Source: Thermoplasmatota archaeon (GTDB taxonomy: Archaea > Thermoplasmatota > Poseidoniia > Poseidoniales > Thalassarchaeaceae). Taken from it: a stretch of 64,000 nucleotides of DNA. Numbering within the stretch: the stretch's first letter is position 1; each line of letters opens with the position of its first letter. The DNA lies in NCBI GenBank assembly GCA_036154155.1, contig JAYZLP010000020.1, forward strand, positions 13,849-77,848, given 5' to 3'. Shown one piece after another: positions 239-57,645 of the stretch. A program made the position numbers and the translations under genes. A model generated the notes under the pieces. The model saw only the letters and a list, made by a program, of their open reading frames with translations. It had not been told where the DNA came from and ran no database searches.

Positions 239-358
239 GGGTCCCAACATTGAATATCCTGTTTCCCAAGTGGTGGTCAGGGGAGCTTAGTGCTGAGAGG
301 TCGCCGCGAGGCGACGACCCTTTTACCTGATCTGGGTAATGCCAGCGGAGGGAGAGAA

Positions 359-1822
359 ATGGATACGAACATCGCATACGGATTGATGATTGCAACGCTG
401 GGTGTCTTCGGTTACATCGGATACCAAGCATCGAATGCCAAGGAGATCGGGGCCGATGACTACCTCTCAGCCAGGGGCTCGCAGGACTGGCTGCGAATCG
501 GGCTGAGCCTGTTCGCCTCCGGGATGGGTATATGGATCCTTTTCGCCCCATCGGAGGTCGGCTACTACGGCGGGTTCTGGGATGTCGTCGGCTACGCCGT
601 CTCCGCGTCCACGCCATTTCTACTTCTGGCGTACGTAGGGCCGATGATCCGTGCGAGGCTGCCGTCGGGAGTGACTCTGGCTGACTATGTGCGCATCCGC
701 CTAGGCAGGCCAATGCAGGTCTATGTGGGATTGATTTCGGTGCTGTACATGTTCACCTTCCTGTTCGCCGAGTTCACTGCAATCGGCAAGGGGATGAAGA
801 CCCTCTCTGGGATGGAGCCGCTAATCCCCATGGCATTGGTGGGGGTTGTCACCGCAGGGTACGTATCGAGAGGCGGCCTTCCAGCATCCCTGGCGACCGA
901 CAGAGTCCAAGCATGGACCATCATGTTCCTTGTGGTGGCCCTGCTGCTCGTTCTTTTCGGCGGAGACATCGGGGGGCTGATTGATGATGCCAGGGCATAC
1001 AACCCCGAAGACTCCTGGAGCATCGGGTCTATGTCGAACATGGACTCTTTCGAATCGGGCCTGGCTCTGATCGTCGCTATCACCGCTGCTGAGATGTTCT
1101 CCCAGGGAAACTGGCAGCGGGCGTGGGCGTCTGAATCCGACGAGGCCCTGGCCAAGGGGGCATGGCTCGCTGCGGCCCTCGTCCTCCCGCTGGTATTCGT
1201 GATGGGCGTCCTCGGGACCGTCGTCGCTGGGCAGGGGGCCGTTACCGAACCATCTGCAGCCTTCTTCTACCTGATTGAGGATGCCGGTGTTCTGTTTGTA
1301 GCCGCATTCATCGTCCTTGCAATCGCTCTGGTATGCTCCAGCGTCGATACCCTGCAAAATGCCATTGTGGCTTCGATATCAAGAGATCTCAGTGATAGCA
1401 CGATGAGCCTTCAGAATGCACGTTACTTGACAATCGGCATGATTCCCATAGCAATCTATCTGGCCACTGGGCCAACACTTCCTTTCACTATACCTCTAAT
1501 CGGAATATCCGCCTTCGATGCAGGAGGCGTGTTTCAGATATTCCTGTTCGCCGACCTGCTAGCAGCTGCAACGGTGATGCCGGTCCTACTCACCCTGTGG
1601 GAGGGGATATCTTCCAAGGGCGCACTGATTGGCGCTGTCTGCGGGCTGCTCTCCGTGGTCCTCTACGGCGCTTATACCGCGGATATCGGGACTGGTATCG
1701 ATTACGTCTTCTCGCCGACCAACGAGTTCGGCCTAGCGAACCTGCACGTATTCCTCTCAGCGGTCATAGGCTCCTCAATCGTGACGGTCGCTGGGTCCTA
1801 CGCACTCCCTGATGAGGAATGA
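359..1822 (+). CDS. Sodium:solute symporter family (SSS) transporter, possibly proline permease PutP-like
   Basis: Multi-TM protein; DDYLSARGS..GLSLFASGMG and AGYVSRGGL..TD motifs typical of the SSS family; it lies next to the P5C dehydrogenase. Start trimmed to MDTNIAYG. Confidence 0.7.
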   Translation: MDTNIAYGLMIATLGVFGYIGYQASNAKEIGADDYLSARGSQDWLRIGLSLFASGMGIWILFAPSEVGYYGGFWDVVGYAVSASTPFLLLAYVGPMIRARLPSGVTLADYVRIRLGRPMQVYVGLISVLYMFTFLFAEFTAIGKGMKTLSGMEPLIPMALVGVVTAGYVSRGGLPASLATDRVQAWTIMFLVVALLLVLFGGDIGGLIDDARAYNPEDSWSIGSMSNMDSFESGLALIVAITAAEMFSQGNWQRAWASESDEALAKGAWLAAALVLPLVFVMGVLGTVVAGQGAVTEPSAAFFYLIEDAGVLFVAAFIVLAIALVCSSVDTLQNAIVASISRDLSDSTMSLQNARYLTIGMIPIAIYLATGPTLPFTIPLIGISAFDAGGVFQIFLFADLLAAATVMPVLLTLWEGISSKGALIGAVCGLLSVVLYGAYTADIGTGIDYVFSPTNEFGLANLHVFLSAVIGSSIVTVAGSYALPDEE

Positions 1823-42707: not shown

Positions 42708-44201
42708 TTGGAAATGAGTAACAATGAGCGTACATTGCTCAAATTCATGTTATCCGAACCATCCAGAACTTGGACCTTGGACGAACTCCTTTCAGGTGCT
42801 GGCTGGGATGACCAGGTCCATGTCGCAGGCTCGGGAATGGCTCTTTCCGAGTTAGGCCTAGTAACCGTAAATGAAGAAATCGAGGCCTTTGTTTCCCTGG
42901 GCGAAGAGGGTGTGAACGCCCATCGCGAGGGCCTCCTGGAGTTCAGAATTTGGAACTGCCTCTCTTCTCTGCCTGAATCAGAGAGGACGATGGATAGGCT
43001 ATTCGAGGAGGGGTTTGAGCGCCACGAAGCAGGTCCCGGCATAGGCCTACTGAAATCCATGGGGCTTTCAATCGATTCTGGAAGGCTGGTCGTCGAGGAC
43101 GAGATATCAATTTCTAAGCAGATTTCTGTAAGATCAGAATTCATCTCTTCTTTGTCAGAAGGCCCCGTTGCCAAGTTAAAACTAGATGACGAAATGGTTA
43201 GCCATTTCCTGGGGAGGAAGGGATTAATTCTGATCAATGAGGAAACCTCCAGATCTTGGTCACTAACCGATGCCGGCTCATCGATTGAACAATCAGAACT
43301 TGAGCATGTTGAGATGATCGGTGAGGTAACGCCAGAGTTGCTCCAATCAGAAAACTGGAGGGGTGCGAAGTTCAAGCCCTTTGATGTAAATTCACCAGCA
43401 CCAATTCCCATGGGCGGGCGCCCCCATCCCATGCAGGCGTTGATAGAGAGGATAAGACAGGTCTTCTTGGAGATGGGGTTCTCGGAGATAGAGGGGGACT
43501 TTGTGCAGTCTGCAGGATGGAATATGGACGCTCTTTACATCCCGCAATCTCATCCAGCAAGGACCATGCAAGACACCTTCTACCTGTCTGAGCCCAGTCA
43601 AATCGATGTCGATGAACACTATCTCGATCTTTGGTCCAAGGTTCATGAGCACGGACACGACACAGGAAGTAAAGGCTGGGGCGGCTCCTTTGACAAGGAT
43701 GAGTCACGCAAATCATTACTGAGGACTCATACGACTGTAAACACTGTGAGGCACATCGCGGAGAATCCCGATGAACCCTCAAGGGTTTTTGGCATTGGAA
43801 GGGTTTTCCGTCAGGAGACGATCGATCGAACCCACCTTCCTGAATTCCACCAGATTGAGGGGATAATCCACGAGGAAGAAGCTAGCCTTCCGATGCTTAT
43901 CACAACTCTGAAGACGTTCTACTCCAAGATGGGCTACCCAGATGTCCGAGTACGACCCGCCTATTTCCCATACACGGAGCCTAGTGTGGAGGTGGACATC
44001 CTTTGGAGGGGCCAATGGCTTGAGCTAGGGGGGGCTGGAATATTCCGCCCAGAGGTCACGGAGCCGCTAGGCTCCAAGTGGCCCGTGTGTGCATGGGGGA
44101 TGGGGCTAGAGAGACTGGCAATGATTATACTAGACCTGGACGATATACGGCAGTTGTACCAACCAGATCTTGAGAGGTTGAGTCGGATGCCCATACTCTG
44201 A
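42708..44201 (+). CDS. pheS: Phenylalanyl-tRNA synthetase alpha subunit (archaeal/eukaryotic type)
   Basis: Class II core motifs FRPAYFPYTEPSVEVDI, GAGIFRPEV, AWGMGLERLAMI. Confidence 0.85.
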   Translation: MEMSNNERTLLKFMLSEPSRTWTLDELLSGAGWDDQVHVAGSGMALSELGLVTVNEEIEAFVSLGEEGVNAHREGLLEFRIWNCLSSLPESERTMDRLFEEGFERHEAGPGIGLLKSMGLSIDSGRLVVEDEISISKQISVRSEFISSLSEGPVAKLKLDDEMVSHFLGRKGLILINEETSRSWSLTDAGSSIEQSELEHVEMIGEVTPELLQSENWRGAKFKPFDVNSPAPIPMGGRPHPMQALIERIRQVFLEMGFSEIEGDFVQSAGWNMDALYIPQSHPARTMQDTFYLSEPSQIDVDEHYLDLWSKVHEHGHDTGSKGWGGSFDKDESRKSLLRTHTTVNTVRHIAENPDEPSRVFGIGRVFRQETIDRTHLPEFHQIEGIIHEEEASLPMLITTLKTFYSKMGYPDVRVRPAYFPYTEPSVEVDILWRGQWLELGGAGIFRPEVTEPLGSKWPVCAWGMGLERLAMIILDLDDIRQLYQPDLERLSRMPIL

Positions 44202-46146
44202 CCACGATTACTGCCATAATCAGGAATGACAGGATCTCTCCACCATTAGGCGGGATAATTTCAGAGAAGTCCGCTATTGAATTCGATACTTCGGACGCCT
44301 GACCCGGAGGCCCTCCTCCGCAACCATCGGGCGGAGGTCCAATCCCGGGGCCCCATGTTTCGCCGTGTCCAGAGCAGTCAGCGCCACCTCCTTCCCCATT
44401 CTCAGAGTAAACCTCCCCTCTGTAGCAGTTTATGAAATAGGGAAAACCAATCCCTCCTTCTCCATTCTCCCAGGTTGTGTGATAGTGGTAGATTCCATCT
44501 GGATAGTCCGGCGTTGGACCGTATTGGCCGTTACAAGAATCCAAGTCTCCGATCCCAGGAGAATATTCGTAGTCATCTATTCCGTTATACCCGGTCTCGC
44601 CTTCCTTGAGCCTGTATGAGGATTTCATTTCAGTTAACTCTCCTTCATCATCCCATCCAACGAAACCATAGATTGGGTATCCATCTAAGGCGAAGCCCAC
44701 TATTGGAGAGTGACTTGTGATTGACCTCGTTGACTCCAAGCTGTAATCAGCCCAGGTTTCTCCACTTTCTTCATCGGGGTGCCAGTGCAAACAGTTCGCA
44801 TCGGCGTGGTAGTGAAACTCCCCGCCTGGGCCTGAGTGGGCATGACAGATCCCTAGCCACACATGCTGCCTATCTTCCTCGTAGGCCCCCTCCTGTCCAG
44901 CTACTGCATCCCCACCGGGCCCATCCTCAGGCCCAAAAATAGGCACCCCATTCGCAGCGAAAGCAACTGCTCCCCTTTCCGGTGCCATGGTGCAACCATC
45001 GGTGGAGATAGATGGATCACACCCAGTCTGATTAGTGGGCTCGAGTGGTATCGTCCATACATGTTCCTGTGCGCTTGTGCAGCAGCCGGGTCCAGACTCA
45101 AGGTCGTGATTTGGAAGGCCATTGGCGGAAATTTGTATATGGGTCTCGTTGGTGGTAAAGCTGAGTTGGCAAACGTGATTGTCAAATTCACTAGTGTTGT
45201 AGTCGTCTATTCCTTCAACCTGTTCTGTGGAGTCACACAATAGCACATCTTCCCACCATTCCTCTGTTCCAGCCTCGATCTCCTCCGATTGTTCATCGTA
45301 CTCGCACGAACCGTCATCCTCCTCAGCGCCAGAGTCGTAGTTGTTGGCCTCTGGGTCTGTGCAACCAGTGACTGGCGCTGGCTCGTCGTACTCGCACGAA
45401 CCGTCATCCTCCTCAGCGCCAGAGTCGTAGTTGTTGGCCTCTGGGTCAGTACACCCTTGAGTTGGTTCTGCTTCAGTTTCCAGAACAGTAATGGTGACAA
45501 TTTTCTGACTTGATGTTTCAGTCCATATGCCACACGTAGCCTCTAGTGAGACCGTGGTGTTTTCCTGTAGGTTGGAAAGCTCCAGAATGTAGCCCCCATC
45601 TTCGTCTATTGGCAGCCCTAGGCTGGACTCTTCGATATCGGTGGTGCTCCACCTCAATTCACATGTCGAAGCGTCATCGTGGATTACAAGTCCGGAGATC
45701 GGAGCATCCCCTCCACGTTCAACATGGAACTCGCCCTGAGAAGTCGTAAGCTCCGTTTCACTCTCTTCAGGATAGTGAATAATGAAAGCTTTGGACCACG
45801 ACGTCTCTTGCCCCAGACTGTCTATTGCCACAACCTTCAGTGCATGGCTACCCACATCTAGTTCAGAGATGTCAATTGAGATCACGCCATACTGATCGGG
45901 TAAATCAGCGATTTCATCTCCGTCTAGTGTGACCAATAGTGAGAGGTCTGACATCTTCTCGTCGCTTATGGTGATTCTAACCGTGTCAACCGTGCCTATC
46001 AGTATCGTATCGGGAAGATCGGAGTCAACAGTGGGCGCGCGATTAAGTCCCTCGTCTTCAACGCCGAAGAAAAGGATGCCCGCCATCACACTGGTAATCA
46101 TGAGCCCAGCCAGCATCAATGACCTCGCGGCCCCTCCATCTTCCAT
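44125..46146 (-). CDS. Secreted YHYH-domain protein with Ig-like N-terminal region, tandem Cys-containing 30-aa repeats and C-terminal hydrophobic anchor
   Basis: Signal anchor. Repeats TQGCTDPEANNYDSGAEEDDGSCEYDE x2. C-terminal GEFHYHADANCLHWHP ... YHYHTTWENG motifs. The 3' end overlaps the pheS 3' end by 77 nt. Confidence 0.6.
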   Translation of the reverse strand: MEDGGAARSLMLAGLMITSVMAGILFFGVEDEGLNRAPTVDSDLPDTILIGTVDTVRITISDEKMSDLSLLVTLDGDEIADLPDQYGVISIDISELDVGSHALKVVAIDSLGQETSWSKAFIIHYPEESETELTTSQGEFHVERGGDAPISGLVIHDDASTCELRWSTTDIEESSLGLPIDEDGGYILELSNLQENTTVSLEATCGIWTETSSQKIVTITVLETEAEPTQGCTDPEANNYDSGAEEDDGSCEYDEPAPVTGCTDPEANNYDSGAEEDDGSCEYDEQSEEIEAGTEEWWEDVLLCDSTEQVEGIDDYNTSEFDNHVCQLSFTTNETHIQISANGLPNHDLESGPGCCTSAQEHVWTIPLEPTNQTGCDPSISTDGCTMAPERGAVAFAANGVPIFGPEDGPGGDAVAGQEGAYEEDRQHVWLGICHAHSGPGGEFHYHADANCLHWHPDEESGETWADYSLESTRSITSHSPIVGFALDGYPIYGFVGWDDEGELTEMKSSYRLKEGETGYNGIDDYEYSPGIGDLDSCNGQYGPTPDYPDGIYHYHTTWENGEGGIGFPYFINCYRGEVYSENGEGGGADCSGHGETWGPGIGPPPDGCGGGPPGQASEVSNSIADFSEIIPPNGGEILSFLIMAVIVVRVWASDSTSQDLVGTTAVYRPGLV
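45296..45447. repeat. Perfect 62-nt identity within a 90-bp tandem direct repeat (2 copies) inside the YHYH gene
   Basis: tcgtactcgcacgaaccgtcatcctcctcagcgccagagtcgtagttgttggcctctgggtc occurs at 45296-45357 and again at 45386-45447. Confidence 0.85.
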
Positions 46147-46221
46147 GATTCAATGTGAGGGCAAGGGCATATAATCAATTAAGTGAAAATGCACGAAAAA
46201 TATGCAATGCAATGAAAAACT

Positions 46222-47289
46222 TCACTCCTCAGAAAGAGAGACAATGTCCAGAAGGAACTCCGAGGGGTCCCAGTTGATGCCAGAATAAGCTACTCTTTTC
46301 CTCATCTGCTTGTCAATAATGAAAGTGGTCGTTGAGTGCCCTACCTCATACTGGCCAAGTGATTCGCCATGGGGGTCCGTGGAGCCCTCTGCCGAACTAT
46401 CCCCCGAGCCCTCTATTACGCAGGACAGCCAATCTCCATCCGGTCGTTCGTAGCCTTCGTCACACATGCAGTGGGCATTGGAACCTGAGCCCATAATCCA
46501 ACCGTGGTTATTGCAATCAGAGCCCGGGGGCATCACACTCAGGTTCGCATTGCTGGCCACCCATGCCAAATGGGTATCAGATGTCATTTCAATCGAATCA
46601 AGTCCACCGGGGTATTCCACCCAGGTTTCGTTAGTTATGTCCCAGGAATGAAGGTCCCAATCCCAGGTTTCGTTAGACTCCCAGCCTCCAATTTCCCCGC
46701 TCGAGAAGTTGTAACTAGTATTTGCTTCCACTAATGCCCCCTCGATATATTCGGTACCGTTCATTCCCGATCCCGTAGTGTCTTGCACCAAGGTTGAATT
46801 GTCAGGGAAAAGCACAACCAATCTGTTGAGGCTGTCTTCCGGGGGCTCACTGGCTGCTATGTGCTCGTTGTCCACAATCACATTCCACGATCTGTAAATT
46901 CCCTGAAGTTCAGAAACCGGGCCAGTCAAGTGAGGCCAGCCATATCCCCTCTCCTCGGTCCATTCGGATAAGTGATCGATTGTGTCCCTCGCCGGGTCGA
47001 TGGTTACCGAGACAATCACCACTTCATCGGAATGCCCCCCAAGATTCTCATTGACGTAGTCTAGATTAGACGAAATCACCAAACAAACATCGGGGCAATA
47101 AGTGTAAACAAAGGCTACCACAATCACCTTTCCCTGGTTATCGGAGAGTCTGAACACGTCCCCGTTCTGATCGAATAGGGCGAAATCAGGAGCATCTGGA
47201 GGGTCCTTGTATTCAATCCCAAGAATCTCAATTGACTCGTTTGAGTCTCCTAAGCACCCTGGGGCTAGGATGGACAATGTGATTAGCAA
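46222..47289 (-). CDS. senC: SCO1/SenC-family copper chaperone (thioredoxin fold) with large Cys/His-rich insertion, lipoprotein-like signal
   Basis: FVYTYCPDVCLV (CxxxC), HLTGP. The fold closes with FIIDKQMRKRVAY..; insertion CNNHGWIMGSGSNAHCMCDEGY. Confidence 0.7.
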   Translation of the reverse strand: MLITLSILAPGCLGDSNESIEILGIEYKDPPDAPDFALFDQNGDVFRLSDNQGKVIVVAFVYTYCPDVCLVISSNLDYVNENLGGHSDEVVIVSVTIDPARDTIDHLSEWTEERGYGWPHLTGPVSELQGIYRSWNVIVDNEHIAASEPPEDSLNRLVVLFPDNSTLVQDTTGSGMNGTEYIEGALVEANTSYNFSSGEIGGWESNETWDWDLHSWDITNETWVEYPGGLDSIEMTSDTHLAWVASNANLSVMPPGSDCNNHGWIMGSGSNAHCMCDEGYERPDGDWLSCVIEGSGDSSAEGSTDPHGESLGQYEVGHSTTTFIIDKQMRKRVAYSGINWDPSEFLLDIVSLSEE

Positions 47290-47318
47290 GACCTTTATTT
47301 TCGAAATAAGATAACCTC

Positions 47319-48068
47319 CTACTCATCAATTAGTAGCATAACGTCCTCTAATGCCAACTCAACATTCCAGTCCATGTCTCCCCACCAGACCCTCTGGTTC
47401 ATCTGCTTGTCCACAATGATGGTACCAGTCGTGTGGTCCACCCAATATTCATGGCTCCCGACGTGCTTAACCGAAACATCCCCATCATCCCCTTGCTGGG
47501 TCTCTAGTCCACATCCGTGGTCATCTACTTGCTCTCCTTCGGGTGTTTCGACACAAGTGTCAAATCCATCTGCAACACCATCTCCATCTGTATCGGTGTC
47601 GTACGCAGTAAGGCCCACATCAAACTCCAACCAAACCTCCTCTAGATCGCTCAAATTACCCGTTAGGTGTGGCCACTCAAGGCCCCTTTGCTCCGAGTAA
47701 TCTGCCAATATTGTGTGGTTGTCTGTCCATGGGTCGACGGTAATACTGAGAATCTCAACAGTTTCTCCGTATTCCTCACCCAGCAGCATCTGCAAGTAGT
47801 CAAGATTAGCACTGACTATCGGGCAAATGTCAGGGCATCGAGTGAAAAGGAATGCAATCACAACGACCTTGCCCTCGTACTGCGAGAATGAGAAGTACTC
47901 CCCATTCTGATCGATTAGGAGAAAGTCTGAAACTGGAACCGGCGGGTTGATGTCCTCCCCATAGAAAACATCAGAGTCTTCGTTCCCGAGGCATCCTGGG
48001 AGGGCGATCATTAGTACGGCACAATACGCCCAAAACCTACTCATCTGACTCCCCCTTCTTGCGTGCAA
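47319..48068 (-). CDS. senC: SCO1/SenC-family copper chaperone paralog with Asp-rich (DTDTDGDGVADGFD) insertion
   Basis: FLFTRCPDICPIV (CxxxC), HLTGN, IIVDKQMNQRVWW. Confidence 0.7.
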   Translation of the reverse strand: MHARRGSQMSRFWAYCAVLMIALPGCLGNEDSDVFYGEDINPPVPVSDFLLIDQNGEYFSFSQYEGKVVVIAFLFTRCPDICPIVSANLDYLQMLLGEEYGETVEILSITVDPWTDNHTILADYSEQRGLEWPHLTGNLSDLEEVWLEFDVGLTAYDTDTDGDGVADGFDTCVETPEGEQVDDHGCGLETQQGDDGDVSVKHVGSHEYWVDHTTGTIIVDKQMNQRVWWGDMDWNVELALEDVMLLIDE

Positions 48069-48561
48069 TAATTACTATTGCTAGTCCCAAGAGAATCAGT
48101 GATAGAGGGGAGAAATCAGAATCATTGCCGGCCGCTGCATCGTCTTGGTCATTGTTGAATGAGTAGCTCCCTGGGGCCACATTTTCAGTGTGGTTGTCTA
48201 GTAATATACTCAGGCTAAGTGTTTTCCAAATAGTGCCATTCGAGAAAATCTGAATTTCATAGTCTCCGGATGTCCAATTTATCGGGTCCAGCCAAACTCT
48301 GCACTCGTCATCCGTGCTTGTAGAAGATGGCCCTGCCGTGCAATCAATCTCGTATACTCCATCCGCCCCTATGTCCAACGTTATGACTCTCTCGAAGTCA
48401 ACCACATTGTAGAAAATCAATGTGTCATTCTGCAGTACCTGTGCTGATTCTGGCTGCAAACTCTCTCCTCTCATGACGAAGGCGAATGTGTTGGCCCCAT
48501 GAGCGGACACGGTTGGAGCGATCAACATCACAATCGCCAATGAGACAAGTATCCTTCTCAT
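48037..48561 (-). CDS. Small secreted protein, predicted mature N-terminal His, C-terminal TM anchor (putative CopC-like metal-binding protein)
   Basis: Signal MRRILVSLAIVMLIAPTVSA then HGANTF...; beta-rich; C-terminal LSLILLGLAIVIIARKKGESDE. Confidence 0.5.
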   Translation of the reverse strand: MRRILVSLAIVMLIAPTVSAHGANTFAFVMRGESLQPESAQVLQNDTLIFYNVVDFERVITLDIGADGVYEIDCTAGPSSTSTDDECRVWLDPINWTSGDYEIQIFSNGTIWKTLSLSILLDNHTENVAPGSYSFNNDQDDAAAGNDSDFSPLSLILLGLAIVIIARKKGESDE

Positions 48562-50519
48562 TCGTCACTAGCCTCCGCTGACCAAAGCGGAGGGTAGTTG
48601 TATCGAGGGTCAAAATCCTCATCGAACTGCACAACATAGATGCCGCTCACCATCTCTGAAATGAATACAAATCCCCTCGGATCATACTGCAGACCCCAGT
48701 CGAATGGAATCATGCATGAAGCCCAACAATCCGCCATATCGTATCCTAGTGTGTTAGTTGGGTCTTCAATCCACGTAGGTCCGGCTGGAAGGTAGTAACC
48801 AAGGGTGTGCGTTGGAGCTAGCTCCTCAATGCATTTGAACCCGCATTCGGGATTTGGGGACCCGCCAGTCCACACTATCTCTTCCCAAATTTTCCCGTGG
48901 TCAGTCAACCAGTTTCCAGCATGGTAGTGAGTCCAATAGACGTGTCCATTGACTCCTGTATCGCCATTGTGCGGGCTGAAAATGTATCCTCCGGGGATAT
49001 AGTGCTGCGGGTGTTTGGAGCCGTTGGCCAAGGTCCCCTCCCCCGGCAGTCTCCATTTGGATACGAGGAATGGCATTGTGGGGTCAGTAGTATCGATTGT
49101 CCACAGGAATCCCGTATGGCCCGGGTTGCTGCCATATTCGGGAGCAATAATGGTGTAGTGGCGCCAGTTCCCCCCGTAAGTCGCGTCTTCCGGTCCAGTG
49201 CCACATTCCGATGGCCACTTGGACTGGGGCACGTACTCACTAATTCCATTGCAGACCAAGTGGTCGTATGGAACTGCGTAGTGTATGTTGTCGTTGCCCT
49301 GCTCAGCATCTAGCCATTCTTCGGGAGTCATATTGGCATGACCTCCTCCGTCGGGGCCATACCATCCTGAGTCATCAGTAGGGCACCCCAGCCATCTGCC
49401 AACTTCTGGCGGCCAGGAGACTCCAAGTGGATCAGCTACCGAGGGAGGCTCACTGACGTCCACTATTCGAAGACCAGCTCCCCAATAAGAGGCCACAAGC
49501 AGCCGTTGCTTTGTGATAGGGTGAACGAAGTAAACGTGATCGTGATTGAATATCGACCCGCCGCAAGTGGTGTAAGGCTCGGGCGTGTATCCGCCCCACC
49601 TGAGTATTTCCCTGCTGGAATTATCGCCAGTGATCCAAGAGTCGAAACCATTAGGCACGTAGAATACCTGAGTCCCTTTGTAGAATGTTCCGCTACTGCC
49701 TTCAACCATTTCCGGATATGGGTCTGCGCCGAAAAGGAACAGGCTGCATTCTTCATAGGGGTCAAAGGCACCATCCCAGTCGCAATAAACCGCTAGGTCT
49801 TGATTGTGGAATCCGGCTGGCGGGTTGTTCCACTCAGCTACCTTCACAGGACGAGTTTTGTCTCTTACATCAATAACATCGAGCCTGTTAGTTCCACTGT
49901 TTGCATCATCGTCATTAGGTATCGGGTCCAGTTCGCTGTTCGTCAACTCATGGTTCACAAGGACCCAGTTGTTGTCCTTTGTTACCTTTATGTCAATCAT
50001 TCTGGCAACTTCTGCGTAATAGGTGGATAGCAAAATTATGTTATTGGGCTCACTGATATCGAGAATCTCGAATTGGTTGTAGCTAGAAACGTACGCATAG
50101 CAGCCACCAGTTCCATCGCCGTATATCTCGCAGTCCTCATGGAAGTTGCCTTCGATAGCTATCTCTGAGTTGTCCCCCGGTGTCGGTCCGACATTCTTGA
50201 ATTCCTCATCACAAGGCCTACCGGCAGTATCGTCAAGTTCCGCCGGCGGCTTAACATTGCCATCGCAATTCAGATTGTGGTAGTCGATAAGAACCGCATT
50301 CTCAGTCCATAGCCGGTGGGAGAATAAATCATTGTGAGAGTGATTTCCGTCCTCAATCTCCGTCACCGGATCTATCCAGCCAGAGTCCCCTCCTTCATTT
50401 CCACCTGAATCATCCAATATCGACAAGCATCCAGACAGTGGAGCTAGAACCATCAATCCGACCATTACCAAGCACGGACTAACCCGCATGCCCCGACGCG
50501 CGCGACCAACGCCTATCAA
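48558..50519 (-). CDS. LVIVD-repeat beta-propeller lipoprotein
   Basis: Lipobox LAPLSGC; repeats LVASYWGAGLRIVDVSEPPS etc. Confidence 0.65.
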   Translation of the reverse strand: MIGVGRARRGMRVSPCLVMVGLMVLAPLSGCLSILDDSGGNEGGDSGWIDPVTEIEDGNHSHNDLFSHRLWTENAVLIDYHNLNCDGNVKPPAELDDTAGRPCDEEFKNVGPTPGDNSEIAIEGNFHEDCEIYGDGTGGCYAYVSSYNQFEILDISEPNNIILLSTYYAEVARMIDIKVTKDNNWVLVNHELTNSELDPIPNDDDANSGTNRLDVIDVRDKTRPVKVAEWNNPPAGFHNQDLAVYCDWDGAFDPYEECSLFLFGADPYPEMVEGSSGTFYKGTQVFYVPNGFDSWITGDNSSREILRWGGYTPEPYTTCGGSIFNHDHVYFVHPITKQRLLVASYWGAGLRIVDVSEPPSVADPLGVSWPPEVGRWLGCPTDDSGWYGPDGGGHANMTPEEWLDAEQGNDNIHYAVPYDHLVCNGISEYVPQSKWPSECGTGPEDATYGGNWRHYTIIAPEYGSNPGHTGFLWTIDTTDPTMPFLVSKWRLPGEGTLANGSKHPQHYIPGGYIFSPHNGDTGVNGHVYWTHYHAGNWLTDHGKIWEEIVWTGGSPNPECGFKCIEELAPTHTLGYYLPAGPTWIEDPTNTLGYDMADCWASCMIPFDWGLQYDPRGFVFISEMVSGIYVVQFDEDFDPRYNYPPLWSAEASDE

Positions 50520-50554
50520 ATTCCCCTTTTGTGGGGCGCGGCCCTAAAGGGCCG

Positions 50555-52300
50555 TCAGAACGTCGAAACTGGCCCATAGGGCTTGTCAATGTCCAATTGA
50601 ACGATGTATAGGCCACTAGTGATACAGGACAGGTATGTGTAACCTTCATGATATTCGGCAGCCCATAGGAAAGGAGTCCAACCGAAGTCATAGAACGCAC
50701 TATCCAAGGGAGTCCCATCAGCACCATGAGGCAGGTGGAAGCCAACCGTGGAGTCCATGTGAACGGCCGTTTTGTTCTCGTCTGAGAGTCCAGCAACCAT
50801 GAGTGTCTCGATATCTACTATCCATAGTCCAGCGTGGTAGCTAGACAAGTATATCCTGCCGTCCCAAGCACCACCGTGGCTATTGTCTGGAAGTCCTGGT
50901 AGACCAGTCTGGAAAATCTGAGTATCTGCGTTATGGGGGCTGAAAAGTAACCACTCTTCCCCGTCCGGTATGTGGTGGTCCCAAGCAAAGGGAATTTCCC
51001 ACCCATGGATCAATTCGGGTTTGAATCTGAGATTTCCATTTACCATTTCATATCCGGTTGTATCTAGAAGGTAGCCCATCCCAGTTCCTACGGTGGTGCT
51101 CAATACTTCTGTGGCGATAATGGTGAGGTGACGCTTACCGACCGGGTATCCAAGGTGACTAGCATCCACCATGTCATCAATCGGCTCTGCGTAGTGGATG
51201 TAAGATGCCCTCCCTCCGTTTTCATTGCTGGTACATCCGCAGTCTATCTCTCCATCACCATCGAAGTCTTCGAACTCCATCCACTGCCCAACCTCTGGTG
51301 CCCTCCAAAGGCAACCAGCCTGGGAACCTCCAGAAGCTCTACACAATGAGCCGTGCCAGAGGTATTCTGCAAGATCCTTTCCTGGATGGGGCACATCCGA
51401 AACGTCGAAGATCCTGAGTCCCGCTTCCCAATAAGCTCCGTAGACATAGGTCCTGGCAAAACGTGGATCATTCGAGTCCTCGCCTGGCCACGTTTGCACC
51501 GTCATATCGTGGATGTAGATCCATCCCCCAAGAGTAGACTCCCACGAAACTTCAGCCTCTCCAAGCTTCACAATCCTAGGCAGATCTCCATAAGCAGCGA
51601 AATTCAGATGTGCAATTGTAATGCCGCCGCATGCATCGCCCTGCCCTACATCGCATGATTCGTAGTCCGGATTAGCGACAAAGATGTACCATTCGTTGTC
51701 GATCATGTGAGTGTAAAGGTTGTGTGGGCCACTCGGGTGGTCAAAGTCGTACCATGAATCCACCCAGCTCGGATTAGACTTGTCCGTGACATCCACTAGT
51801 GTCACTGTGACCTGAGCTGGGTCCTCCCAAGATCCAACATTGGGATCTGCTGCCCCGGGGTCAACAAGCTGATTCTGCACGATTACATATTCCCTAGCAT
51901 TGTATTCCAGATATTTGACATCCAAGACCTGTGTGTTCGGGTCGTAGTAAACCCCAGTAACTGTTGTATTGTATGGATCAGTCACATCGACGATATGCAT
52001 TTCTGACCATCCTGCAATGTATGCATATGTTTTCCCATCAGGGGAGTCTGCAACTTGGACCTCGGCATTACCCGGGGCTGTAAGTGGATTGTAGCTAACT
52101 GGCAATATATTATCCGTGTAAAGAATATGCTGACTAGCGTTTCTATGATCATGCCCCTCTTCCTGGATCAGTGGGTCCTCCATTCCTTCGACAATCGTAG
52201 CACTATCTTCGGTTTCCTCTATCAGCATAATCGACGCCACAACTGCCGCCAAAACACAACCTGCAAAGGCCAGTGCCAGAACTATCCTCCCGGACTCCAC
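50555..52300 (-). CDS. LVIVD-repeat beta-propeller protein (paralog)
   Basis: Signal anchor; IAGWSEMHIVDVTDP, GAYWEAGLRIFDVSDVPHP, SYHAGLWIVDIETL. Confidence 0.65.
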   Translation of the reverse strand: MESGRIVLALAFAGCVLAAVVASIMLIEETEDSATIVEGMEDPLIQEEGHDHRNASQHILYTDNILPVSYNPLTAPGNAEVQVADSPDGKTYAYIAGWSEMHIVDVTDPYNTTVTGVYYDPNTQVLDVKYLEYNAREYVIVQNQLVDPGAADPNVGSWEDPAQVTVTLVDVTDKSNPSWVDSWYDFDHPSGPHNLYTHMIDNEWYIFVANPDYESCDVGQGDACGGITIAHLNFAAYGDLPRIVKLGEAEVSWESTLGGWIYIHDMTVQTWPGEDSNDPRFARTYVYGAYWEAGLRIFDVSDVPHPGKDLAEYLWHGSLCRASGGSQAGCLWRAPEVGQWMEFEDFDGDGEIDCGCTSNENGGRASYIHYAEPIDDMVDASHLGYPVGKRHLTIIATEVLSTTVGTGMGYLLDTTGYEMVNGNLRFKPELIHGWEIPFAWDHHIPDGEEWLLFSPHNADTQIFQTGLPGLPDNSHGGAWDGRIYLSSYHAGLWIVDIETLMVAGLSDENKTAVHMDSTVGFHLPHGADGTPLDSAFYDFGWTPFLWAAEYHEGYTYLSCITSGLYIVQLDIDKPYGPVSTF

Positions 52301-55488: not shown

Positions 55489-57645
55489 ATGTCTCCCGTC
55501 TTGGCCCGAGGCATTCGCGTGAGCGCTGGATTAGAAGCGGTGGCCATAAAGAACCTCCAGACCCTATTTGTTTCAAGGGGGGTCTCAGCAGAGTCTCTAT
55601 TTTCGAAATACGATATTGATGGCGATGGGTCATTGAGCCTAGATGAGTTCTCGGCGGCCCTAACTTCCATCACTGGGCAGTCAGCACCCCAAGCAATTGT
55701 GAGGGCAATTGTGAGCGCCCTTGACTCAGATGGTGACGGTTCCCTGAGCCTCTCAGAAGTAATCTCTCTAGTCGAGTCAAACACGGATGAGGAATACTCA
55801 GAGGGTTCCGGAATCACCGTCAGCGATCACCCCAACCCCCTATACAATGGTGAGTATATTCCGCAGCATGAAGTCAATGGGAAGCCTTCGTTCAGGAATT
55901 CTGAAGGAGCCGTTCTTTACTATTACAACGCCGGCTCCGGGGGTGCTCCCTCATGGAGCCTAGATGACAGGGACCAGGATGGTAGCAATGACTGGTACAG
56001 AGGTGGCTGGACACGCGTCCCGAGCTCCGGTGGATTACCCCTCGGTCATAGGAGGTGGGTAGGTGTCGGAAAGATCACCATCAGCTCCATCTCAGACCCA
56101 AGTGAACCAGGGCCAAGTGCGTCGGAGGAAAGTGCGTCAGAACCAATTTCACCGCAAGATCAGGCAGTAAGCAACACGGAGATTATTCTCTCGAAGGCGA
56201 CCTTTTCAAGCTTGGAAGAAATCACCTTCCACTTCAGGGTCCCTCAGTTACCTGGAGACGCATGGATCGGGATTATTCCCTCTGGAATCCCCCATGGGGA
56301 TGAGGCGGTCAATGATATGCACGATACCAGTTTCGTGCATCTCCATGGGGAGACGACGGGCGAGGTTAGCCTTCCCAACCCGGGGCCTGGCGAATGGACG
56401 CTGAGGTTGCATGATACGGATAACAACGGTAACGAGATGGCATATGTTGCATTCACCGTTAGTGGCATCGAAACCGATCCCCGCCCTTCCATCACCGTCG
56501 TCGGTGGCGACAGTGTGCCTATCGATGGCCCGCTAGAGATTTCCTTCACGGGAGCAGATGAAAATACTGCCTGGGTGGGAATTTATGGAGAGGGGGGCGC
56601 ACATGAGAATCACAATGGTTGGTGGAAGTATCTTAATGGCGAGCAAACACCACCCAGTGCTCCGATATCCGAAGGCAACATTACTTTCCAACCATCCGAA
56701 AGAAGATCGGAAAACATTGGCATGTACCAAGCGAGACTGTTCGCGAACAACGGCTACGAAATGATCGCCCAATCCCGGTTCGAGTTCGTAGAGGAGATCA
56801 CACTGGACAGCGTCACCGGCCAGTTCTCCGACATCCTCGCTTCGATTGATCCCCAGTCAAGCAGCATCGAGGCGATAGAGGCGGGGAGAGTCCTGGCGGA
56901 CGCTAGAATAGAGCGGAAGATATCCAGACTCCCCTTTTCACTGCAATCACCGGCAAGAAGAATCTGGGATGCAAGAGCGGATGCCTACCAAGCAACGATG
57001 GTCGCAAACCTCCCTCCTCCCGAGACAGTAGCAGCTGGAGTTGCCGCGGCAGGAATAGCGGCCGCGGCCCTTTCGTCCGCCACAAGGGAGACAGCTCCTT
57101 CCCATGGGGGCGATACCGATGACGATGCAGTAGTCTCAGATGATTTGCCTGGTGAGCAGGAAGAAACCATTGCCCCCACTGAAGCAGAACGTATCCAAGC
57201 CGCAGCGCTTGAGCAAGCCCGCGCCCAAGTCGCCGCAACAACCCCCTCTGCAACTTCGCCACCTGAAGCAACATCGGAACCTGCTACAGGGGCCACCGAT
57301 CAAGACCCATTCTCTGAAGTGGTTAGGTCATTCTCTGAGGCGAGATTATTGTCCGATCAGAAACGCCTCGTTGAAACTCATGGGGGCGCTTGGTTCGAGG
57401 TTTCACTCAAAGTGCTGTCCGTGGAGAAGACCTTCGGGATTGGGCTTCCGGAGGGATACAGGGGAGGTAGCACGTTGATTGCTGAAGTTTCCCCCGTTGG
57501 AAACCCCTCATTCTCCTGCGAGTCCGAGATCAGGCTCCCATCTTCTGCTGATTCGGGCACCTACAAAGCAGGACATGAGGGAGTCATGAGGGTCTCCGTA
57601 CAGGGATGGAACTCCATTCGAAAGAGAGTCATATTGGCCTCTTAG
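55489..57645 (+). CDS. Large hypothetical protein with two N-terminal EF-hand-like Ca-binding loops and two internal beta-rich repeat modules
   Basis: DIDGDGSLSLDEF and DSDGDGSLSLSEV; repeats DAWIGIIPSG..WTLRLHD..AYVAFTV and TAWVGIYGEG..YQARLF..SRFEFV; hydrophobic segment near residue 500. Confidence 0.5.
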   Translation: MSPVLARGIRVSAGLEAVAIKNLQTLFVSRGVSAESLFSKYDIDGDGSLSLDEFSAALTSITGQSAPQAIVRAIVSALDSDGDGSLSLSEVISLVESNTDEEYSEGSGITVSDHPNPLYNGEYIPQHEVNGKPSFRNSEGAVLYYYNAGSGGAPSWSLDDRDQDGSNDWYRGGWTRVPSSGGLPLGHRRWVGVGKITISSISDPSEPGPSASEESASEPISPQDQAVSNTEIILSKATFSSLEEITFHFRVPQLPGDAWIGIIPSGIPHGDEAVNDMHDTSFVHLHGETTGEVSLPNPGPGEWTLRLHDTDNNGNEMAYVAFTVSGIETDPRPSITVVGGDSVPIDGPLEISFTGADENTAWVGIYGEGGAHENHNGWWKYLNGEQTPPSAPISEGNITFQPSERRSENIGMYQARLFANNGYEMIAQSRFEFVEEITLDSVTGQFSDILASIDPQSSSIEAIEAGRVLADARIERKISRLPFSLQSPARRIWDARADAYQATMVANLPPPETVAAGVAAAGIAAAALSSATRETAPSHGGDTDDDAVVSDDLPGEQEETIAPTEAERIQAAALEQARAQVAATTPSATSPPEATSEPATGATDQDPFSEVVRSFSEARLLSDQKRLVETHGGAWFEVSLKVLSVEKTFGIGLPEGYRGGSTLIAEVSPVGNPSFSCESEIRLPSSADSGTYKAGHEGVMRVSVQGWNSIRKRVILAS

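Follow-up and report, generated by a model that had tools for sequence, protein, structure and literature searches.

What happens to a compact copper-chaperone fold when foreign sequence is built into it? This question is raised by two tandem SCO1/SenC genes, here called SCO1a and SCO1b, on the reverse strand of a 64,000-nucleotide stretch of DNA (the window) from a Thermoplasmatota archaeon of the Thalassarchaeaceae (assembly GCA_036154155.1, contig JAYZLP010000020.1, positions 13,849 to 77,848). The solved SCO proteins that matched them are all compact single domains of about 140–200 residues, and both genes encode expanded versions of this fold. We asked what the additional segments are, where they sit, and whether one of them provides a second metal site, as a preliminary description of this DNA had proposed for SCO1a. 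On balance we think it likely that both proteins are membrane-tethered SCO chaperones with accessory adaptor modules in the loop that leads to the copper-ligand histidine, and that these modules are not extra copper sites. Feature coordinates are collected in Table 1.

Membership in the SCO family is clear for both proteins. Against a Pfam SCO1-SenC (PF02630) cut-off of 22.8 bits, SCO1a scored 87.9 bits (E 7e-25) and SCO1b 86.9 bits (E 1.5e-24), with partial coverage of the 134-position profile (positions 2–110 and 2–115, respectively), and all 30 SCO1b orthologs scanned matched the same profile. In Foldseek searches with AlphaFold2 models built from ortholog alignments, solved SCO proteins topped both lists, at target-relative TM-scores of 0.54–0.66 for SCO1a and 0.67–0.80 for SCO1b. 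The two proteins are 42% identical over their N-terminal 135 aa (E 1e-34) and can be aligned again over the last ~40 residues; their adjacent open reading frames (ORFs), separated by 29 nt, lie exactly where the preliminary description had placed them, and its identification of tandem paralogs holds. We found more than 200 full-length orthologs of SCO1a and more than 480 clusters of SCO1b homologs, the nearest genome being the Marine Group II (MGII) metagenome-assembled genome “Euryarchaeota archaeon UBA438” (97% protein identity for SCO1a). For the locus counts given below, we used the best 80 among 300 stretches matched in species-representative genomes (Poseidoniales/MGII throughout), and conservation was counted over 80 genomes for SCO1a, 74 for SCO1b and 70 for a 174-aa neighbour. 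SCO1b is located directly upstream of SCO1a in 77 of the 80 genomes, and the pair is thus ancient and under selection.

The start of SCO1b is most likely the ATG at 48044 rather than the TTG, as the ATG is preceded by a GGGGGAG motif and gives a product of 241 aa, compared with ortholog lengths of 240–243 aa. With the TTG start, SCO1b shares 32 nt (48037–48068) with the end of the small ORF upstream of it, and with the ATG 8 nt, the latter overlap being suggestive of translational coupling inside an operon.

Both N-termini consist of a hydrophobic signal followed by an invariant Gly-Cys (“PGCLG”), a combination by which both SCOs are probably lipid-anchored at the outer face of the membrane. 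In SCO1a, G11 and C12 are invariant in the ortholog alignment and at least 97% conserved across the genomes counted. The copper-site residues that had been noted initially, a CxxxC motif plus a distal histidine, are present as C65/C69/H318 in SCO1a and C78/C82/H212 in SCO1b, at 99–100% conservation, and the closing strand reported for both proteins is likewise there (TFIIDKQMRKRV and TIIVDKQMNQRV). Each would therefore bind copper through a Cys2His site facing outward, as far as can be judged from sequence. The site has its own peculiarities. The residue ahead of the ligand histidine is glycine in SCO1a (“VGH”) where canonical SCO proteins have aspartate (“VDH”), and further histidines are invariant: H120, H143 and H307 in SCO1a (H307, like H318, at 100%) and H134 and H202 in SCO1b. 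They fall in WPHLTG, in NEHIAAS (SCO1a only), and 10–11 residues ahead of the ligand histidine; the WPHLTG and pre-ligand positions are common to both paralogs and to relatives linked to cytochrome oxidase genes (see below), and are missing from the solved SCO sequences aligned to insert-deleted constructs. These extra histidines may modify the copper site or change copper coordination.

Both expansions are true insertions. Deleting residues 141–305 from SCO1a improved its match to Arabidopsis SCO1 (6n5u) from E 6e-9 to E 1.2e-12, and deleting residues 157–197 from SCO1b improved its match to Thermus Sco1 (2k6v) from E 3.9e-11 to E 5.6e-14. The insert-deleted constructs align through the ligand histidine with no gap at the junction (6n5u, 4wbj, 2k6v); SCO1b shows one 3-residue gap against 2k6v, nine residues upstream of the junction. 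In both proteins the insertion point is immediately ahead of the His-bearing hairpin, and the Foldseek alignments of the SCO1b model are ~40–50 columns longer than their targets, matching what an insert would predict. Yeast Sco1 can be aligned to full-length SCO1b contiguously through the insert, as if nothing had been inserted, which is the outcome that the preliminary description had named as refuting its reading. In that alignment, however, the Asp-rich insert is paired with the “DYLVDH...DPEGQFVD” region, and we consider it an artefact because the real hairpin of SCO1b (YWVDHTTGTIIVDK) lies further downstream, the Pfam match stops at position 115, and insert-deleted SCO1b aligns better through the histidine. 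Alignment to solved SCO structures thus mapped the insertion points and upheld both inserts. The expansions had been correctly placed inside the fold in the preliminary description, but their sizes, given there as 150 and 60 aa, are about 165 and 41 aa.

The bulk of the SCO1a insert, by profile comparison, is a separate and strongly diverged DUF4430-type domain that had previously been missed. When a profile of the module, built from SCO and ZnuA hosts only, was compared by hhalign with bona fide DUF4430 repeats (9/9 of which pass Pfam PF14478), the two matched over 83 columns at 99.4% probability and E 2.2e-21, with a shared core of G-x-[FV]-x-x-I-x-G ... W-x-L-x-x-W-N ... W ... G ... IAW. 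The AlphaFold2 model of the module has a predicted local distance difference test (pLDDT) score of 85–94, conserved tryptophans and the order strand-strand-helix-strand-strand-strand. An exhaustive search of 1.8 billion representative proteins with a profile of the insert alone returned 93 matches, among which are surface proteins with tandem DUF4430 (one or more of them from a Firmicute); P0288 was matched at E 1.2e-8, and one of its matches fell inside Pfam’s best DUF4430 stretch. P0328, also returned, was set aside as a spurious match to an Ig-like repeat protein. A direct Pfam scan for DUF4430 gave no match for the window segment and only one among 21 related segments (E 0.2), so that the link is made by profile-profile comparison. 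Profile searches of the Protein Data Bank (PDB) sequences with the insert, the DUF4430-like module and the DUF4430 repeats returned chance-level matches only (ribosomal L17, Doa1, BLIP-II), and Foldseek with the whole models returned only SCO and thioredoxin-like matches, leaving the inserts unassigned. No DUF4430 or EGF modules were found elsewhere in the window. Transcobalamin-type B12 binders carry a domain of the DUF4430 type at their C-terminus (PMC4350170).

The remainder of the SCO1a insert contains the Cys/His-rich motif that had been read as a potential second metal site (CNNHGWIMGSGSNAHCMCDEGY, residues 259–280, 46450–46515). The insert profile also matches proteins with 5–12 tandem repeats above the Pfam EGF, EGF_2 or EGF_Teneurin thresholds, and in an alignment with such repeats (including those of P0292) C259, C274, C276 and C290 correspond to EGF cysteines C2, C4, C5 and C6, the C1 and C3 positions being occupied by other residues. 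In canonical EGF domains C1 and C3 are bonded to each other. The EGF C-terminal signature C-x-C-x2-G-[FYW]-x(n)-C is present and invariant (C274-M-C276-D-E-G-Y-x9-C290), whereas the full six-cysteine, three-disulfide pattern is absent, as the module has four cysteines only. Direct EGF profile matches were obtained for 9 of 16 insert members, all below threshold (best EGF_Teneurin, E 0.0076). Across 32 orthologs each SCO1a insert has either four or six cysteines; the additional pair is in the DUF4430 part (C-x4-8-C), and neither of its members is ever found alone. H262 of “CNNH” is conserved in only 50% of genomes, and H273 is invariant. The EGF positions of the cysteines, their even counts and the variable H262 point to a disulfide-stabilised structural module, probably a truncated EGF-like domain with two disulfides, and the stretch is most likely not a metal site.

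The SCO1b insert is different and consists of DTDTDGDGVADGFDTCVETPEGEQVDDHGC followed by a short acidic linker. Its Asp-rich motif (DTDTDGDGVADGFDTC...DDHGCG, residues 157–187), like the Cys/His-rich motif of SCO1a, is present as first reported, with a suggested resemblance to thrombospondin type-3 (TSP3) or RTX-like calcium loops. The TSP3 half of that suggestion gained support: although Pfam TSP_3 (PF02412) scores the window protein at 19.3 bits against a cut-off of 25, it is detected in 19 of 30 orthologs at E <= 0.01 (best E 7e-6), and two orthologs carry a precomputed PF02412 match. The pattern DxDxDGxxDxxDxC...GC is near-invariant (D157, D159, D161, D163, D167, D170, C172 ... D182, G185, C186), and residues 156–193 weakly match the NCBIfam PA1041-type anchor lipoprotein and TraB models, families which we take to be bearers of TSP3 repeats. 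As to the RTX half, direct reading of the 41-aa insert revealed neither a GGxGxD unit nor tandem nonapeptides, and the Pfam scans returned no RTX family. A tandem TSP3 arrangement was not seen. Sequence comparison therefore supports one TSP3 repeat, a putative calcium loop, with a conserved cysteine pair.

Relatives of the SCO1a insert show that the modules are combined in several ways. Among the 93 matches are SCO proteins with DUF4430 plus EGF, two DUF4430 plus EGF (~510 aa), three DUF4430 (P0291), DUF4430 alone (for example, P0286) and EGF alone (P0296). Metal-binding proteins of the ZnuA family likewise contain this DUF4430 module, once or twice, and are encoded in znuABC-type operons (ZnuA, ABC ATPase, ABC-3 permease; loci L084, 5903–8116, and L085, 1513–3540). 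One of these proteins, P0323, aligns to AdcA with its N-lobe at AdcA residues 5–81 and its C-lobe at 93–279, which places the extra material at the His-rich loop. By these alignments, two unrelated scaffolds that handle metals, SCO and ZnuA, both hold the DUF4430 module in a flexible, His-bearing loop next to their metal site, and in their distribution the modules behave as mobile accessories. The DUF4430-bearing ZnuA-family proteins (P0274, P0277, P0293, P0294, P0308, P0312 and P0323) are 500–830 aa long, most have EF-hands, and in every one of them extremely long stretches rich in His and Asp take the place of the His-rich loop; in one of the operons a cobW-type GTPase gene lies five genes upstream.

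Some relatives also connect this design to cytochrome oxidase. At four loci (L086, L087, L089 and L093) a DUF4430-type SCO is the last gene of a COX2-COX1-COX3-COX4-SCO series; going by source names only, three of these are labelled Poseidoniaceae/Poseidonia (MGIIa) and the fourth has no family label, whereas family-level labels on orthologs of the tandem pair are all Thalassarchaeaceae or Thalassarchaeum (MGIIb). The cox-operon and ZnuA contigs have no housekeeping genes in common with the window or the MGII loci by which they could be placed. The cox-linked protein P0260 has the full SCO1a design, with lipobox, WPHLTG, DUF4430, HCMCDEGY...C and “VGH”. P0379 (231 aa) occupies the same slot with no module and only a His/Asp-rich linker; its SCO core is ~72% identical to that of P0260, and the two loci share synteny and have COX1 proteins 86–87% identical. 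Basic oxidase-linked function thus does not require the modules. This natural presence/absence pair at the end of the cox operon is that of L089 (9001–10110; DUF4430 and EGF) and L091 (10001–10696; His/Asp-rich linker). Poseidoniales encode an A1-type haem-copper oxidase, and cytochrome c genes have been detected in no Thermoplasmatota genome (PMC9287336).

Combining these observations, we propose that SCO1a and SCO1b would be old tandem paralogs of an MGIIb archaeon, facing outward and each keeping the Cys-x3-Cys plus histidine site, and that each would carry an independently folding extracellular module on the client-facing side, in the mobile loop leading to the His hairpin. The ligand histidine of ScoI is part of a beta-hairpin that extends the fold between helix 4 and strand 8, the His loop possibly adopts an alternative conformation, and in the proposed ScoI-Cu-CoxB intermediate copper is held by four cysteines, two per protein (PMC6669012). 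Such an intermediate implies that the His loop must move during transfer, and inserts in this loop would then ride on a mobile, partner-facing element. The modules could serve as disulfide- and calcium-stabilised adaptors that stiffen or position the ligand loop, or dock the protein to a client or to the cell envelope, and differing modules could provide the paralogs with different partners. By analogy with the MGIIa oxidase-operon SCOs of the same design, the client of SCO1a would most likely be the CuA site of cytochrome oxidase subunit II (CoxB), while that of SCO1b may perhaps be encoded in the conserved neighbouring cluster. The specialisation to different copper-delivery targets suggested in the preliminary description is, on sequence grounds, plausible.

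Several observations weigh against this proposal. The cores of the cox-linked SCOs are ~37–41% identical to SCO1a and to SCO1b alike, which makes them a third lineage and leaves orthology to SCO1a unestablished. Cox genes are absent from the window and, in 83 MGII loci, from the surroundings of the pair out to ~8 kb, so the oxidase link of SCO1a is by analogy only; proximity to cox genes is typical of the SCO family rather than strictly defining, and is seen in the relatives, not at the MGIIb pair. The window sequence itself falls below the Pfam thresholds for TSP_3, EGF and DUF4430, and model confidence is low for the EGF-like (pLDDT 54–65) and TSP3 (pLDDT 35–59) parts. Finally, the invariant H273, H143 and H307 are not obviously required by a purely structural module and leave some doubt.

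These histidines bear directly on the alternative in which the Cys/His stretch of SCO1a (C259, H273, C274, C276, C290) binds a metal of its own, with a function in storage, relay or sensing, so that each SCO1a carries two metals. Four invariant cysteines and H273 lie within 32 residues, H307 is nearby, the stretch is in the loop adjoining the primary copper site, and in a region modelled at low confidence geometry is no bar. We nevertheless find a second site very unlikely, given the EGF spacing with one whole disulfide pair absent, the even cysteine numbers and the half-conserved H262, to which are added SCO relatives in the oxidase slot that have no module or DUF4430 alone, and the oxidising extracellular surroundings implied by the lipobox-like signal. 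It is also quite unlikely, in our view, that the DUF4430 module acts as a receptor for a corrinoid, or for a metal chelate or metallophore, and passes metal to the adjacent site. Such a function would account for the module being beside the metal sites of both SCO and ZnuA, in the latter at the His-rich loop, in znuABC operons and flanked by long His/Asp-rich stretches, and would agree with the place of DUF4430 in B12 binders (PMC4350170); yet the window copy is strongly diverged, with no direct Pfam match, and SCO relatives have between 0 and 3 copies, close ones none, so that a spacer or adaptor fits better than an essential receptor.

Two other explanations concern the pair as a whole. One or both paralogs could be mainly TlpA-like thiol-disulfide oxidoreductases, with redox and metallation functions split between them. 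A redox role is established for some SCO proteins; both paralogs also match the AhpC-TSA and Redoxin profiles and, weakly, NCBIfam ResA and TlpA, and their models have strong structural similarity to thioredoxin-like reductases such as ResA. We consider this improbable, since the motif is of the SCO type (CxxxC) and not CxxC, the distal histidine is invariant in both proteins, and SCO1-SenC scores are far above the redoxin scores. Alternatively, the paralogs might be redundant and their inserts neutral decorations, of the kind typical of expanded, acidic proteins on the surface of marine archaea. Module content is indeed highly variable in relatives, one lineage having only a low-complexity linker, but dozens of insert positions are at least 97% conserved across the MGIIb orthologs in 74–80 genomes, and 77 of 80 genomes retain the two genes in the same order, which makes neutrality extremely unlikely. 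The reading that we prefer remains that of tethered SCO chaperones with adaptor modules in the His loop.

Table 1. Positions of the SCO pair, its parts and the neighbouring genes in the window.
Feature	Position	Strand	Basis or remark
SCO1a gene, lipoprotein-type SCO1/SenC with two-module insertion, 355 aa	46222..47289	-	ORF, Pfam, Foldseek
SCO1a lipobox-like “PGCL” (G11-C12)	47251..47262	-	Predicted lipid-anchor Cys
SCO1a CPDVC copper-binding motif (C65, C69)	47083..47097	-	99–100% conserved in 80 genomes; aligns to CxxxC of solved SCOs
SCO1a insertion overall, residues 141–305, ~165 aa	46375..46869	-	Gap-free junction to 6n5u/4wbj and better E-value once removed
SCO1a insert module 1, divergent DUF4430-type (transcobalamin-C-terminal-like), residues ~152–255	46525..46836	-	hhalign, AlphaFold2
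SCO1a insert module 2, probable truncated EGF-like, residues 256–293	46411..46524	-	Invariant C259, C274, C276, C290, H273
SCO1a His-bearing hairpin PHGESLGQYEVGHSTTTFIIDK	46309..46374	-	H318, SCO copper ligand; H307, extra His; aligns to “DYLVDHS...” of 6n5u
SCO1b gene, lipoprotein-type SCO1/SenC with TSP3 insertion	47319..48068	-	249 aa from TTG; probably 241 aa from ATG 48044
SCO1b CPDIC copper-binding motif (C78, C82)	47823..47837	-	100% conserved in 74 genomes; aligned to solved SCOs
SCO1b insertion overall, residues 157–197, 41 aa	47478..47600	-	Gap-free junction to 2k6v, 2b7j and better E-value once removed
SCO1b putative single TSP3 repeat DTDTDGDGVADGFDTCVETPEGEQVDDHGC	47511..47600	-	Pfam TSP_3, column conservation; invariant C172 and C186
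SCO1b His-bearing hairpin VSVKHVGSHEYWVDHTTGTIIVDK	47406..47477	-	H212, SCO ligand; H202, extra invariant His; aligns to GPGEYLVDHTATTFVV of 2k6v
Conserved six-gene cluster	44125-52300	-	Two LVIVD, small His protein, SCO1b, SCO1a, YHYH
174-aa secreted, C-terminally anchored protein	48037..48561	-	Conserved position between LVIVD genes and SCO1b
Two LVIVD-repeat (predicted beta-propeller) surface proteins	48558-50519, 50555-52300	-	Pfam LVIVD; order kept in 80 genomes
673-aa YHYH-domain protein downstream of SCO1a	44125..46146	-	Pfam YHYH, E 2e-33; detected in 50/80 loci

The pair is embedded in a conserved cluster whose order does not vary among the 80 genomes: LVIVD2, LVIVD1, a small protein, SCO1b, SCO1a, in some loci the YHYH gene, and then, on the opposite strand, the gene for phenylalanyl-tRNA synthetase (PheRS). 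The small protein (174 aa) matches nothing in Pfam or NCBIfam. Its signal peptide is predicted to end between TVSA and HGAN, so that the mature N-terminus would be a histidine (H21), and H21, H124, C74 and C87 are at least 97% conserved. From this sequence pattern it may be a histidine-brace-type copper protein and is a candidate partner of the SCO pair. An H-x-H...H motif occurs close to the N-terminus of both LVIVD proteins (GNHSHNDLFSH and GHDHRNASQH). Many His motifs are present in the YHYH protein, which also has, upstream of the YHYH domain (45300–45470, reverse strand), two identical copies of an acidic unit of 24 residues that includes a cysteine pair (GCTDPEANNYDSGAEEDDGSCEYD). No PDB relatives of the YHYH and LVIVD1 proteins were found by sequence, and literature searches combining SCO with Marine Group II, YHYH with copper, or LVIVD with SCO1 found nothing relevant. 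A broader possibility, in which DUF4430 is a portable metal-capture or docking “antenna” in SCO and ZnuA loops and the six-gene cluster forms an undescribed system for copper acquisition or cuproprotein maturation at the cell surface, separate from oxidase assembly, is tentative and we think it unlikely.

The window as a whole is archaeal, encoding TFIIB, the small subunit of PolD and an archaeal-type PheRS alpha. Directly ahead of a gene of the sodium:solute symporter family (290–1822, forward strand), and extending over its start, is a thiamine pyrophosphate riboswitch (Rfam RF00059; 269–370, forward strand; 58.9 bits, gathering score 54.3); the gene product is a candidate transporter of thiamine or a thiamine precursor. 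A 718-aa protein (55489–57645, forward strand) has an N-terminal EF-hand pair, no further recognised domain, and no DUF4430 or EGF modules.

Compared with known SCO1/SenC/ScoI proteins (Bradyrhizobium ScoI, 4wbj/4txo; human SCO1, 2gqk/2gt6; Thermus Sco1, 2k6v; Arabidopsis HCC1, 6n5u; Bacillus YpmQ, 1xzo), the tandem pair shows a variant architecture that is new for this well-known family. It shares with them the thioredoxin-like fold, the CxxxC motif with the hairpin histidine, the tether at the outer membrane face and, in the MGIIa-labelled relatives, the position at the end of the cox operon. It differs from the solved members in the modules of ~165 and 41 aa ahead of the His hairpin, in the “VGH” of SCO1a, in the extra histidines and in not lying beside cox genes. 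The SCO1b insert resembles the TSP3 repeats of bacterial OmpA-like anchor proteins in its DxDxDGxxDxxDxC...TPxGxxVDxxGC pattern with a cysteine pair, but it is a single internal repeat in an enzyme-like fold, not a tandem array of a structural or adhesive protein. Similarly, the SCO1a module is related by profile homology over 83 columns to DUF4430 (PF14478), as found in tandem-DUF4430 surface proteins of Firmicutes (P0288, P0307), whereas the SCO1a copy is embedded in a loop of another domain and strongly diverged. The closest parallel in arrangement is ZnuA/AdcA, in which a flexible His-bearing loop by the metal site accommodates extra sequence, and MGII-like ZnuA homologs carry the same DUF4430 module; ZnuA/AdcA nonetheless has an unrelated fold, binds another metal and functions in transport, not as a chaperone.

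With natural variants that have 0–3 modules, and a close relative free of modules, these proteins constitute a comparative system for the role of the His loop in client recognition, and the conserved neighbouring genes are candidates for new copper proteins. If the modules are simple spacers, the finding stays a modest architectural curiosity; its importance would be greater were the cluster, or the DUF4430 module common to SCO and ZnuA, to belong to a surface copper system. Marine Group II archaea are uncultured and globally abundant, ranking among the most abundant groups of archaea in ocean surface waters, and the recurrence of DUF4430 in the His-rich loop of zinc-uptake proteins suggests that metals are handled at the cell surface of this group by a common, as yet unexplored principle.

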